Of a stretch of 30,959 bases of DNA, positions 5,932-8,704 are shown one piece after another. Position 1 is the first letter of the stretch. Every line of letters begins with the position of its first letter. Location: positions 1 through 30,959 of the IMG/VR virus record IMGVR_UViG_2531839474_000010; one strand, 5' to 3'. The notes below the pieces were generated by a model that ran no database searches, had not been told where the DNA came from, and saw nothing but the letters and a program-made list of their open reading frames with translations. This DNA is from a virus. Taxonomy: Duplodnaviria > Heunggongvirae > Uroviricota > Caudoviricetes. Both the position numbers and the translations under genes were made by a program.

Positions 5932-6228
5932 TTATACCTCTGAATCAATATCAACCTGGTGGTGAGCAATGGTTTCAACCATGTACCGGATGTGTTCTGC
6001 CATGCGCTCCTGAAACTCAACATCGTCATCAAACGCACGGGTAATGGCTTTTTTGCTGGCCCCGTGGCGTTGCAAATGATCGATGCATAGCGATTCAAAC
6101 AGGTGCTGGGGCAGGCCTTTTTCCATGTCGTCTGCCAGTTCTGCCTCTTTCTCTTCACGGGCGATCTGCTGGTAGTGACGCGCCCAGCTCTGAGCCTCAA
6201 GACGATCCTGAATGTAATAAGCGTTCAT
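5932..6228 (-). CDS. gam: Gam, host RecBCD inhibitor, 98-aa short form
   Basis: Translation [47 protein letters not shown]... matches the lambda GamS region. Confidence 0.93.
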
Positions 6229-6303
6229 GGCTGAACTCCTGAAAATGGCTGTGAAAATATCGCCCGCGAAATGCCAGGCTGATTAGGAAAACAGGAAAGG
6301 GGA

Positions 6304-6714
6304 TTAGCGATTCAGGCCGTTACCGCGTCCGTCGAGAAAAACTTCCACGAGCAAATCACGGGTATAAGTGCGCTCGATGCCGCGATGCAGATAAAGCCGT
6401 CCGCGTAAATTAGCTGATGCAGTCCAGGTACCATCTTTGTGTTTGACCAGCATTCCTGGCATGACCGCACCTCGATTAACGGTCTGCGTTCCGTAATGTT
6501 GATGAACCATAAAAACTCCTGCCCGTAAGCTGGGCTGCTGAACATATAGAGACTTCTGCGCGTATTCAGGCGGTGGATGGCCGCCGGTTGTCATAACTAA
6601 GTCGCCTCGTTGAAGCGACTGAGGTATGAAGTGTTGAGTTGATTTCAGCTGGTCACACCGACGTTCACGCGTCCGCTTCACCCCTCGCACTCCCCGGAGC
6701 CTGCTGAAATTCAA
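6304..6714 (-). CDS. Hypothetical early-left protein; first gene downstream of the putative pL/OL; start uncertain (6714 or ATG at 6594)
   Basis: 136-aa ORF with an Arg-rich N-terminus ([15 protein letters not shown]) ending just upstream of gam. Function unknown. Confidence 0.4.
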
Positions 6715-6769
6715 GCTGCGGATCTAAGCGGTCATCGCAACGGTGAAGTTATAAATTTTGTGATACCAA

Positions 6770-6870
6770 CATCGATGCAATAGCATGACAATAGCAATGG
6801 CTATTGATGTAGTCAATAGCAATTAGTATTGATAATGTTTGATATACTTGTTCTGATTGATAATTAAATG
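6770..6870. promoter_or_regulatory. Putative left operator/promoter region (OL/pL)
   Basis: AT-rich intergenic DNA with three direct CAATAGCA copies (6778, 6789, 6814), the palindrome CAATAGC-AATG-GCTATTG (6789..6806) and three ATTGAT motifs (6802, 6828, 6856). The same motifs recur between cI and cro. Confidence 0.4.
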
Positions 6871-7059
6871 AATTTTTATAAAAAAGAGTATGAAGACTTA
6901 TTGGTGTGGCTGAAATTTGTACAGCTTTAATGTGCCTCGTGACAGAGGGGCATCGGGTTGTGGTGAGCTCGGTAGGTTGGCAGCAAATTTAATCGAATAT
7001 TGGTAGTCTGAGTTCTTATGTGTATTTTTTAGTCAGTTGCTAAATGATACATAAATGAC

Positions 7060-7096
7060 TTATTAGCCCCGCCATCGCTTTGTACGGGGCGTTTAT
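7060..7096 (-). terminator. Candidate intrinsic terminator directly after the SIR2-like gene, possibly bidirectional
   Basis: GC stem GCCCCG (7066..7071) / CGGGGC (7085..7090) followed on the plus strand by GTTTATTTAATTT; sits next to the stop of the 7097..8704 gene, separating it from the putative OL. Confidence 0.45.
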
Positions 7097-8704
7097 TTAA
7101 TTTATGTTTTCAACATTTCCATGAATCAACAAGTCGTAGGCAAGAAATAGTTTCCTATACTGGGTTTTTAAATTGTCAACGTCGCATGCCTTGAATTGAA
7201 CAAACGCTTCTTTTTTAACATAATCTTCAATCTCCTCTTTGGGGATATTTTTTATGTTCTTAATGACTATAGACAATTCTTTGTACTTTTTGAACGTTGC
7301 ATTCTTTATATCTTTGATGTTGGTGTAAATTTTATTTGCATTGATTTTATCTAAGGTGATTTTATTGAGCAAGTCGTCTAGTTTTCCGTGGCGTTCAATG
7401 CGTTGATTTAGTTTTAACACATATTTAGCTGGCAAACTTAACTCTTTCAAATTACATGAGGTTATAGTTTTTGAAAATGGAAGCTGTAATGAGTTTACTG
7501 AACCTAATATGAAATCTATGGCTAATTTATTAGATATTTCATTTTTATCAAATAAGTAGTCTTCAAGATAATTTATTTCTTTAACTTGTGTGAATACATA
7601 CTTTTTATCGCCTAGAGCAACAACTAAATTTTTTCCTTGTTTAACACTTTCTTCAAGTCTGTCTAAGTCAGAAGGTGAAACCAATAGAGTATCTAAGTGC
7701 CCTTTTTCACCCTCATTAATGATAAGTGTTTTAATGGCTCTTTGATACCTTAAAACATCATAAGGTGAGAGCCCTTCATCAACAGCACTGATCTCATCAT
7801 AGATCTGTTTATAGTTATCTGTTTTAACAGATGTATATGTAATTTGTAGCTGTTGATCGGTAATCTGTTTTGGTACTACTTCCTGTTCATTCTCTTTATA
7901 TTCAATCAAAATTATTCTTTCAGCTGATTTTCGACCATCTTCTCTAGGTAGTTGTGAGGAAAAATCAGAAAGAAGTTTCTTTACATTCCTGTCAGTTAAA
8001 GAATATCCAAGAAAAACTATTGGATTTTTAATCATGTTAGATAGTATCTTGGCACTAATGAGTATAGATTTGTTGTCATATTTTTCGTAATCATCTTTAT
8101 TTATGATTATTGAGTGTGGATCCTTTATATCACCATGGATTTTGTATAACTCACTCCATCCAATAGTATCTTCGAAAAAACCATTATTTCCAATATAGAG
8201 TTTTGGAGTTACATTTTGCTCTTGAAGTAAATTTTCTATGAAAGCATCATAATTTGTAGTGATGATTATCTTGGCCTTTTTTATTAATGTTTTAAATGAT
8301 GCTAATTCATCAAGATTTACATCCTTTCTGATTGTGTTATTAGAAAATCTTTGGCATATAGCGTATTTAAATGGTGAAATATCTTCACTAAAAACCCTCT
8401 TGGCATCTAGTCCATTTAATTTTAATTTGCCAGTCCTAAACAATAGATTGTAATCATTTTCAATTTTACTTGCTGCCTCTGTATAAATCTTATGATCGAT
8501 ATCATTATCACTGTTATTTTTATGTGATTCTTTTATTGTTAAAAGATAACTATAGAAATCATTTGTGGGATTTGTTATTTTCCAATACTCGTTTAATAGC
8601 TCTTCCCACGTTGGGTAGTTCTCTAAATATCTTTTTGAAATGCCTGAGCCAATAAAGACTATTGGGTAATTTTTGAATTCAAAATTTTTTTTTGACATAT
8701 CCAT
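7097..8704 (-). CDS. SIR2-family (SIR2_2 / ThsA-DSR-like NADase fold) protein with an uncharacterised C-terminal domain, 535 aa; candidate anti-phage effector
   Basis: Ordered motifs: Gly-rich loop VFIGSGIS (res 16-23), TTNYD (res 149-153; N151 codon at 8252..8254), KIHGD (H190 codon at 8135..8137), FLGYSLTD (res 231-238). Asn-to-His spacing is 39 residues, close to the roughly 40 recalled for ThsA/DSR2. Strongly AT-rich (about 30% GC by eye) against a roughly 50% phage background. Same strand as cI, immediately downstream. Confidence 0.75.
   Translation of the reverse strand: MDMSKKNFEFKNYPIVFIGSGISKRYLENYPTWEELLNEYWKITNPTNDFYSYLLTIKESHKNNSDNDIDHKIYTEAASKIENDYNLLFRTGKLKLNGLDAKRVFSEDISPFKYAICQRFSNNTIRKDVNLDELASFKTLIKKAKIIITTNYDAFIENLLQEQNVTPKLYIGNNGFFEDTIGWSELYKIHGDIKDPHSIIINKDDYEKYDNKSILISAKILSNMIKNPIVFLGYSLTDRNVKKLLSDFSSQLPREDGRKSAERIILIEYKENEQEVVPKQITDQQLQITYTSVKTDNYKQIYDEISAVDEGLSPYDVLRYQRAIKTLIINEGEKGHLDTLLVSPSDLDRLEESVKQGKNLVVALGDKKYVFTQVKEINYLEDYLFDKNEISNKLAIDFILGSVNSLQLPFSKTITSCNLKELSLPAKYVLKLNQRIERHGKLDDLLNKITLDKINANKIYTNIKDIKNATFKKYKELSIVIKNIKNIPKEEIEDYVKKEAFVQFKACDVDNLKTQYRKLFLAYDLLIHGNVENIN

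Follow-up and report, generated by a model that had tools for sequence, protein, structure and literature searches.

Positions 6770 to 6870 of the window, by which we mean the whole 30,959-nt stretch of a lambdoid E. coli prophage that we analyzed, very probably form the OL/PL control region of that prophage, with two 20-bp operators placed on a leftward sigma-70 promoter. The region lies where OL/PL is expected, carries dyad sites of the family found between cI and cro, has these sites overlapping a predicted promoter, and shows covariation of the sites with the repressor domain that binds DNA. The initial annotation had proposed a left operator with one recognition motif in common with the cI-cro operators, on the far side of a cI plus SIR2-like unit from OR. 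This proposal is supported by operator matrices, by Pfam and PADLOC calls, and by a comparison of related loci in which 77 of 77 agreed for each of two repressor types.

Location of the region and gene content of the locus

We first describe the locus, the features of which are collected in Table 1. The region sits between the early-left genes (kil, gam, bet, and exo) and a minus-strand unit of SIR2 and cI. This placement agrees with that of OL in the annotated phages 4A7 and PhiR68_2, which have the same immunity, and with the "O-L region" of phi80. Downstream of cI, the SIR2 gene occupies the position of rexAB in lambda and of bstA in BTP1. Its 535-aa product is a full-length match to the PADLOC candidate defence family PDC-S25 (E = 1.3e-235).

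The sequence of cI fits a cleavable repressor of the LexA/cI type, with an HTH domain, an S24 domain, an Ala-Gly site, and a Ser/Lys dyad. The alignment shows no variation in the AG cleavage site (VSAGPG) or in the GDSM and VKR motifs, and the N-terminal domain matches the DNA-binding domain of 434 repressor in the PDB (E about 1e-5).

Beyond the IS3-family element that follows gene P, terminase genes (13719-15952) and a tail-sheath gene (21419-22915) take the place of the nin/Q/lysis region. Coverage of 11400-14400, which includes the IS3 junction, stays below 80% in every complete E. coli genome. This may be a lambdoid prophage that was truncated or that became joined to a myovirus-type element. 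Given the IS3-family element after P, the prophage may also be defective, and PL would then perhaps be biologically irrelevant in the current host.

Table 1. Features of the early region and of the predicted control elements; bit scores refer to the operator motif
Feature	Position	Strand	Description
Lambdoid E. coli prophage, early region	30,959-nt window		IMGVR_UViG_2531839474_000010
Integrase	1459-2622	minus	
exo/bet/gam	between integrase and kil		left of OL
kil	6304-6510	minus	cell-division inhibitor; PGAP annotation of an essentially identical prophage
Gene-free stretch in annotation	between kil and SIR2 gene		550 bp
Low-GC cassette	6748-8814		OL/PL allele, 230-bp spacer, and SIR2 gene; blastn breakpoints against PhiR68_2
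Orphan weak half-site	6777-6786	minus	ATGCTATTGC, the first CAATAGCA copy; 6.3 bits
OL1	6788-6807		20-bp palindrome, halves ACAATAGCAA and TGGCTATTGA; over PL -10 and spacer
PL (predicted)	6816..6788	minus	-35 TTGACT (6816..6811), 17-bp spacer, -10 TATTGT (6793..6788), TG before -10
OL2	6813-6832		20-bp site, halves TCAATAGCAA and TTAGTATTGA; centre 25 bp from OL1 centre
Degenerate distal part of OL	6829-6880		
Weak half-site	6829-6838		TTGATAATGT; 5.1 bits
Weak half-site	6851-6860		TTCTGATTGA, holds the third ATTGAT; 5.6 bits
SIR2_2-domain protein, 535 aa	7097-8704	minus	Pfam SIR2_2, E = 1.3e-23
cI repressor, 230 aa	8811-9503	minus	Pfam HTH_3 (N-terminal) and Peptidase_S24 (C-terminal)
PRM (predicted)	9539..9511	minus	TTGACC-17-TAAATT; -10 at 9516..9511
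OR3	9513-9532		halves TTTATACGCT and TGCGTATTGA; 19.0 bits, OR-derived matrix
OR2	9538-9557		right half alone good; 9.5 bits, OR-derived matrix
PR (predicted)	9554..9582	plus	TTGATT-17-TATTAT, TG before -10
OR1	9563-9582		halves TTAATACGCA and TTGCTATTAT; 28.0 bits, OR-derived matrix
Possible extra operator-like 20-mer	9598-9617		halves CCAATAGGAA and TTGATAATGA; over cro ribosome-binding site and ATG
cro, YdaS-like	9614-9841	plus	driven by predicted PR
cII analogue, YdaT-like	9866-10411	plus	driven by predicted PR
Replication genes O and P	right of cII analogue		
IS3-family element	12153-13366		HTH_Tnp_1 ORF and rve ORF; directly after gene P

The repeated motifs are pieces of one operator half-site

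Three kinds of repeated element had been reported from the region, and most of their details were reproduced. Three direct copies of CAATAGCA are present at 6778, 6789, and 6814 and absent from the rest of the 31-kb window. The palindrome CAATAGC-N4-GCTATTG occupies 6789-6806 as claimed. ATTGAT occurs three times, at 6803, 6828, and 6856, with spacings of 25 and 28 bp instead of the 26-28 bp given earlier. The motifs also recur in the cI-cro region, with ATTGAT at 9528, 9553, and 9607 and GCTATTG at 9550. While CAATAGCA, GCTATTG, and ATTGAT are all real, they are not separate elements but overlapping pieces of a single 10-bp half-site. This half-site approximates TTGCTATTGA, has the consensus T[T/G][G/C/A][C/G]TATT[G/A]A, and is arranged as 20-bp inverted repeats.

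The motifs stand out from their AT-rich background, as the initial annotation required. With dinucleotide-preserving shuffles of 6770-6870 (GC about 30%) as the null, three copies of ATTGAT arose in 42 of 20000 shuffles and three copies of CAATAGCA in none of the 20000. The OL and OR regions have the exact 10-mers TTGCTATTGA, CATTGCTATT, and ATTGATAATG in common and share 12 8-mers. In 1483 other 117-bp windows, the number of shared 8-mers averaged 0.33 and never exceeded 4; of 5000 shuffles of the OR sequence, only 2 reached 12. No picking of sites is involved in this shared k-mer test, which is hence without selection bias. Searched with up to three mismatches, the idealised 20-mer TCAATAGCAATGGCTATTGA matches only 6788-6807 and 6813-6832 in the window, against an expectation of 0.00 from 100 whole-window shuffles.

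These counts weigh on the possibility that the similarity is due to chance in AT-rich, low-complexity sequence, or is the non-functional relic of a duplication. The composition of the region would suit such an origin, as would the first CAATAGCA and the third ATTGAT, which are without a palindromic partner. However, neither full site was produced in 20000 local shuffles, just as the three CAATAGCA copies were not, and the cores of the sites are kept across otherwise unalignable alleles, which makes this explanation extremely improbable. We find it equally hard to credit a role for the repeats in replication, recombination, or packaging (as iterons, or as an ori, att, or pac site). Direct repeats spaced about 11 and 25 bp are superficially iteron-like, but the motif recurs exactly at the cI-cro promoters; the distance to O and P is about 3.5 kb rightward, and that to the integrase gene about 4 kb leftward. 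The lambda replication origin lies inside O.

Operators at OL match those at OR

We scored the region with a matrix trained solely on four cI-cro half-sites, so that the OR sites are themselves training sites. Although not a fully blind test, in that the training half-sites were picked after the OL motif was known, this search gave OL1 27.7 bits (second best in the window) and OL2 25.2 bits. OL1 and OL2 are the best non-training matches in the window; the best score outside OL and OR in the 31 kb was 5.5 bits. Among 20000 dinucleotide shuffles of the local AT-rich segment, none attained 25.2 bits, and the highest score was 21.4. In the reverse test, a matrix derived from OL recovered the OR sites.

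OR as a whole spans 9513-9582, with site centres 25 bp apart. Downstream of the predicted PR start, at 9598-9617, is a possible further operator-like 20-mer to which the OR- and the OL-derived matrix each give 15.6 bits; it has the 10-mer ATTGATAATG in common with the edge of OL2 (6828-6837).

Operators and predicted promoters have mirrored geometry

Promoters were predicted by a consensus sigma-70 scan, independently of the operator matrices. PL transcription would start near 6781 and read leftward into kil-gam-bet-exo. The outer edge of OL1 is also the outer edge of the PL -10 element, a 3-bp gap separates OL1 from the -35 element, and OL2 overlaps the -35 element over 4 bp. OR1 and OR2 lie on PR in the identical register, with the same 3-bp gap to the -35 element and the same 4-bp overlap. 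At PRM, the spacer and -10 element are covered by OR3, while OR2 abuts the -35 element. The scan was not enriched for promoter matches overall (12 candidates in 3.5 kb versus 12.6 expected by chance). Therefore, we place weight on the mirrored OL/OR geometry and not on promoter likeness as such.

The cI ATG (9503) follows the end of the predicted PRM -10 element at a distance of 8 nt and lacks a Shine-Dalgarno sequence upstream. Thus, the cI mRNA is probably leaderless. Leaderless repressor mRNAs are known from lambda cI and CP-933P paaR2 (PMC8630535).

We also looked for a rightward promoter or small gene at 6868-7095, and the consensus scan detected no plus-strand promoter in 6770-7100. Within this interval, the spacer at 6900-7060 has a strong positive GC skew (0.29-0.43). 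Directly after the SIR2 stop codon, at 7066-7095, the plus strand reads as a hairpin (GCCCCG...CGGGGC) followed by TTTATTT. As an intrinsic terminator, this hairpin reads as more suited to rightward transcription than to the cI-SIR2 message, and it may be bidirectional.

OL/PL lies in a mosaic cassette with the SIR2 gene

Homology to phages with near-identical cI (4A7, PhiR68_2, and others) stops at 6747 and restarts at 8815. Both ends of the intervening cassette are sharp; the left one is some 34 nt from the predicted PL start, on its downstream side, and the right one is a single base beyond the cI stop codon. GC content within the cassette is 26-36% in most 200-bp windows (42% at 6900-7099), compared to about 50% in the flanks. 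The interval from cI to N is a known mosaic hotspot (PMC8585504). Because OL/PL is located inside the cassette, the operators appear to travel with the defence cargo and not with cI. Of 5426 complete E. coli genomes, 166 contain the OL-SIR2 module.

A blastn search of 6748-6900 in "distant" mode against 50,697 phage records returned no match. Other OL alleles were located via flanking anchors, as blastn could not align them. The OL alleles of 80 IMG/VR loci that have an identical cI form three classes, unalignable outside the sites. All three classes, like the alleles of phages with near-identical cI, nevertheless retain two 20-bp sites 25 bp apart and the embedded promoter TTGAYW-17-TATTRT, and the same promoter arrangement is readable in the class A and BTP1 alleles.

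In a comparison of 43 different class A OL sequences (loci L007-L086, identical cI), variability is highest in the OL1-OL2 spacer and in the outer positions and post-OL2 spacer. The variable columns correspond to 6808-6812 and 6831-6838 of the window, while site cores and flanks are nearly invariant. Seven class B sequences differ in 8 columns, 5 of which are within the 45-bp OL1-OL2 stretch. This allelic variability may represent switch tuning or recombination scars.

The left operator of this allele has two detectable full sites

The operators had been described as tripartite, which holds reasonably for OR, but the OL allele of the window has two detectable full sites. To the right of OL2, the best 20-mer scores at most 0.9 bits, compared to 25-28 bits for OL1 and OL2. 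We considered a third operator in the registers 6829-6848, 6838-6857, 6841-6860, and 6857-6876, and none scores as a full site. Three operator sites are not universal among lambdoid phages.

The remaining motif copies, the third ATTGAT (6856) and the first CAATAGCA (6778), are part of no full palindromic site. The half-site that contains this CAATAGCA copy is located at the predicted PL start, 11 bp away from OL1's left half and without a partner half, and is poorly conserved in other OL alleles. On the distal side come two weak half-sites and then the block TGNTTGATA...AAWGAATTWAT, which the OL alleles conserve. In class A and in BTP1, the alleles include a good third half-site (TTGMTATTAA or TTGTTATTAT) as well as a fourth (TTGCTATCAA). 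From this comparison, the SIR2-linked OL allele looks like the version with a degenerate distal part.

It is possible, if unlikely, that OL/PL is no fixed part of the backbone but belongs to an exchangeable defence cassette, so that cargo exchanged at the rex position would come with its own OL/PL allele, matched of necessity to the resident repressor, and that the allele tunes defence-gene dose. Should cI form a lambda-like loop between OL and OR, the degenerate distal sites beside strong OL1 and OL2 would weaken repression of PRM at long range and yield more cI-SIR2 expression. Were such tuning real, polymorphism in the operator spacers and outer positions would reflect selection on switch settings.

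Operators covary with the repressor's DNA-binding domain

We compared operators and DNA-binding domains across BTP1, PhiR26_1, a Klebsiella phage, and IMG/VR loci. The cI of BTP1 is 86% identical overall, has the identical HTH stretch SQGALAKASGVAQPTIWRLTSGNARGSTKIVEIANALGV, and is accompanied by the same half-sites at OL and OR. The cI of PhiR26_1 is almost identical in its C-terminal domain and differs in its HTH (SQAAIQKIETG versus AQPTIWRLTSG). PhiR26_1 has GGTTGTT-type sites at both OL and OR, inside flanks homologous to those of 4A7-type phages. In IMG/VR, type-1 sites are present at OL as well as OR in all 77 window-type loci, which lack type-2 heptamers, and all 77 PhiR26_1-type loci show the reverse pattern; the loci in both sets are related by descent and represent few independent swap events. 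This natural swap of the HTH domain is still the strongest available evidence that the sites are cognate to cI, and we infer from the covariation that the repressor binds OL. Our literature search found no binding, footprint, transcription-start, or reporter data and no operator definition for this immunity type, and searches on BTP1 operators and on the string TTGCTATTGA found nothing relevant.

The swap also bears on whether the repeats could be promoter-like hexamers and AT-rich DNA upstream of a strong early promoter, or sites of host nucleoid proteins such as IHF or H-NS, instead of repressor operators. TATTGA and TTGAT do resemble -10 and -35 elements in a region of such low GC content, and the ends of half-sites double as the PL -10 (TATTGT) and -35 (TTGACT). 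In addition, class A alleles carry a perfect IHF consensus, TATCAAACATTTA, on the PL-sense strand of the distal block (read by eye). However, the sites form inverted repeats of 20 bp, in which the inner GC/CG (half-site positions 3-4) plays no part in a promoter, and the HTH swap switches the motif completely at OL and OR together while flanks and host stay unchanged. The IHF-like match is missing from the window allele, from BTP1, and from locus L071. We consider it improbable that the repeats are anything of this kind. An IHF site in the distal block was dropped as a feature, as it fits class A alleles only.

Covariation by itself leaves room for a different reader of the sites. The YdaS-like Cro, or another phage regulator, might read them mainly or exclusively, with cI acting at OR alone; sequence cannot separate cI from Cro binding, and both genes covary with the operators. 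On the other hand, the GVAQPT[IV]WR helix is found in both proteins and is nearly identical between them (GVAQPTIWR in cI, GVAQPTVWR in Cro). Silencing of kil is a necessity for a prophage, and PL would be toxic if left unrepressed. Among characterised lambdoid switches, none is known in which cI and Cro use different sites. For CP-933P, there are data for shared use of sites by the repressor and a Cro-type protein (PMC8630535). Taken with these points, a left operator that cI does not use is quite improbable.

The PL leader and the absence of N

Neither PGAP nor related phage records annotate an N gene after PL. Between the predicted PL start (~6781) and the kil ATG (6510) lie about 270 nt of conserved, GC-rich sequence, in which most records annotate no gene. 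An Rfam scan of 6000-10600 under an E-value threshold found no match to any known put, nut, or sRNA family, and folding of the PL leader (6546-6782, minus strand) gave no unusual stability (z = -0.95). The phi80 homologue of 6571-6630 sits immediately 3' of gene N, which suggests that the N segment is absent in this lineage. A PL transcript with nutL and N was thus not recognised in the lineage. N-less lambdoid phages such as HK022 exist, and N is not defining for OL.

An alternative ORF at 6304-6714, with a TTG start, has an arginine-rich N terminus that resembles the ARM motifs of N proteins. Its variable columns are distributed 20/19/18 by codon phase, with no sign of coding, in a heterogeneous alignment that makes this a weak test. 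The PL leader also contains a boxA-like CGCUUAGA upstream of a hairpin.

Proposed operation of the switch

Binding, cooperativity, the transcription start, any OL-OR loop, and SOS inducibility are all inferred for this phage, and the following scheme is conditional on them. In a lysogen, OL1 and OL2 would be bound by cI dimers, with probable cooperativity, so that PL is shut and the genes from kil-gam-bet-exo through xis-int are silent. The same cI at OR1 and OR2 would shut PR and, from OR2, activate PRM to give the cI-SIR2 transcript. The S24 domain with its AG, GDSM, and VKR motifs implies RecA-stimulated self-cleavage and SOS induction, and such cleavage of cI would open both PL and PR. The YdaS-like Cro should read the same sites as cI, with the same helix. 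The distance between OL1 and OR1, 2775 bp, is compatible with lambda-like looping.

Comparison with known lambdoid switches

Read from its sequence, the region is a lambda-type OL/PL in function and architecture, a control element of a classical kind, and its recognition leaves the understanding of lambdoid switches unchanged. It does provide a concrete operator definition for an immunity type that is widespread in E. coli and Salmonella, among 4A7-like coliphages and BTP1-like Salmonella phages. This definition can be used to annotate PL, PR, and PRM, to predict homo- and heteroimmunity, and to design reporters for the defence gene cotranscribed with cI.

As in lambda, OL/PL lies between the early-left operon and a unit of cI and accessory genes, its palindromes are common to OR, site 1 covers the -10 element and spacer while site 2 covers the -35 element, and cargo is carried at the rexAB position. 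A leaderless cI transcript from PRM is likely here as well. The OL-OR distance is about 2.8 kb here and about 2.4 kb in lambda. In contrast to the 17-bp lambda operators of the TATCACCGC type, the sites described here are 20 bp long and built from the half-site TTGCTATTGA. The region further differs from lambda in having two convincing OL sites and no N gene or recognisable nutL after PL, in its YdaS/YdaT type of Cro and cII, and in carrying a SIR2 protein in place of RexAB as cargo.

The 434 operators have CAAT...ATTG outer elements in common with the sites in the window. Operators of 434 are 14 bp, with the form ACAA-N6-TTGT. In the window, CAAT and ATTG are 10 bp apart, compared to 4 bp in 434, and the recognition helix differs.

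The closest relatives of the region are the immunity region of BTP1 and the PaaR2/YdaS/YdaT region of CP-933P. The Salmonella phage BTP1 has a PL of the form TTGATA-17-TATTGT and a defence gene directly downstream of cI (PMC8585504). BTP1, unlike the phage studied here, belongs to the P22-like podoviruses, has an N gene after PL, and carries BstA as its cargo, and its OL has clearer third and fourth half-sites than the window allele. The repressor/YdaS/YdaT region of CP-933P forms a lambda-like switch with repeats common to PR, PRM, and PL (PMC8630535). It resembles the present locus in its cargo downstream of the repressor gene, its YdaS-type Cro and YdaT-type cII, its leaderless repressor mRNA, and its palindromes common to PR/PRM and PL, some of which have one good half. 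In contrast, PaaR2 has no S24 peptidase domain, its palindromes are 18 bp long (GTTTAGTAA type), and its cargo is a toxin-antitoxin system. The CP-933P switch has been studied experimentally (PMC8630535), whereas the region described here is known from its sequence.
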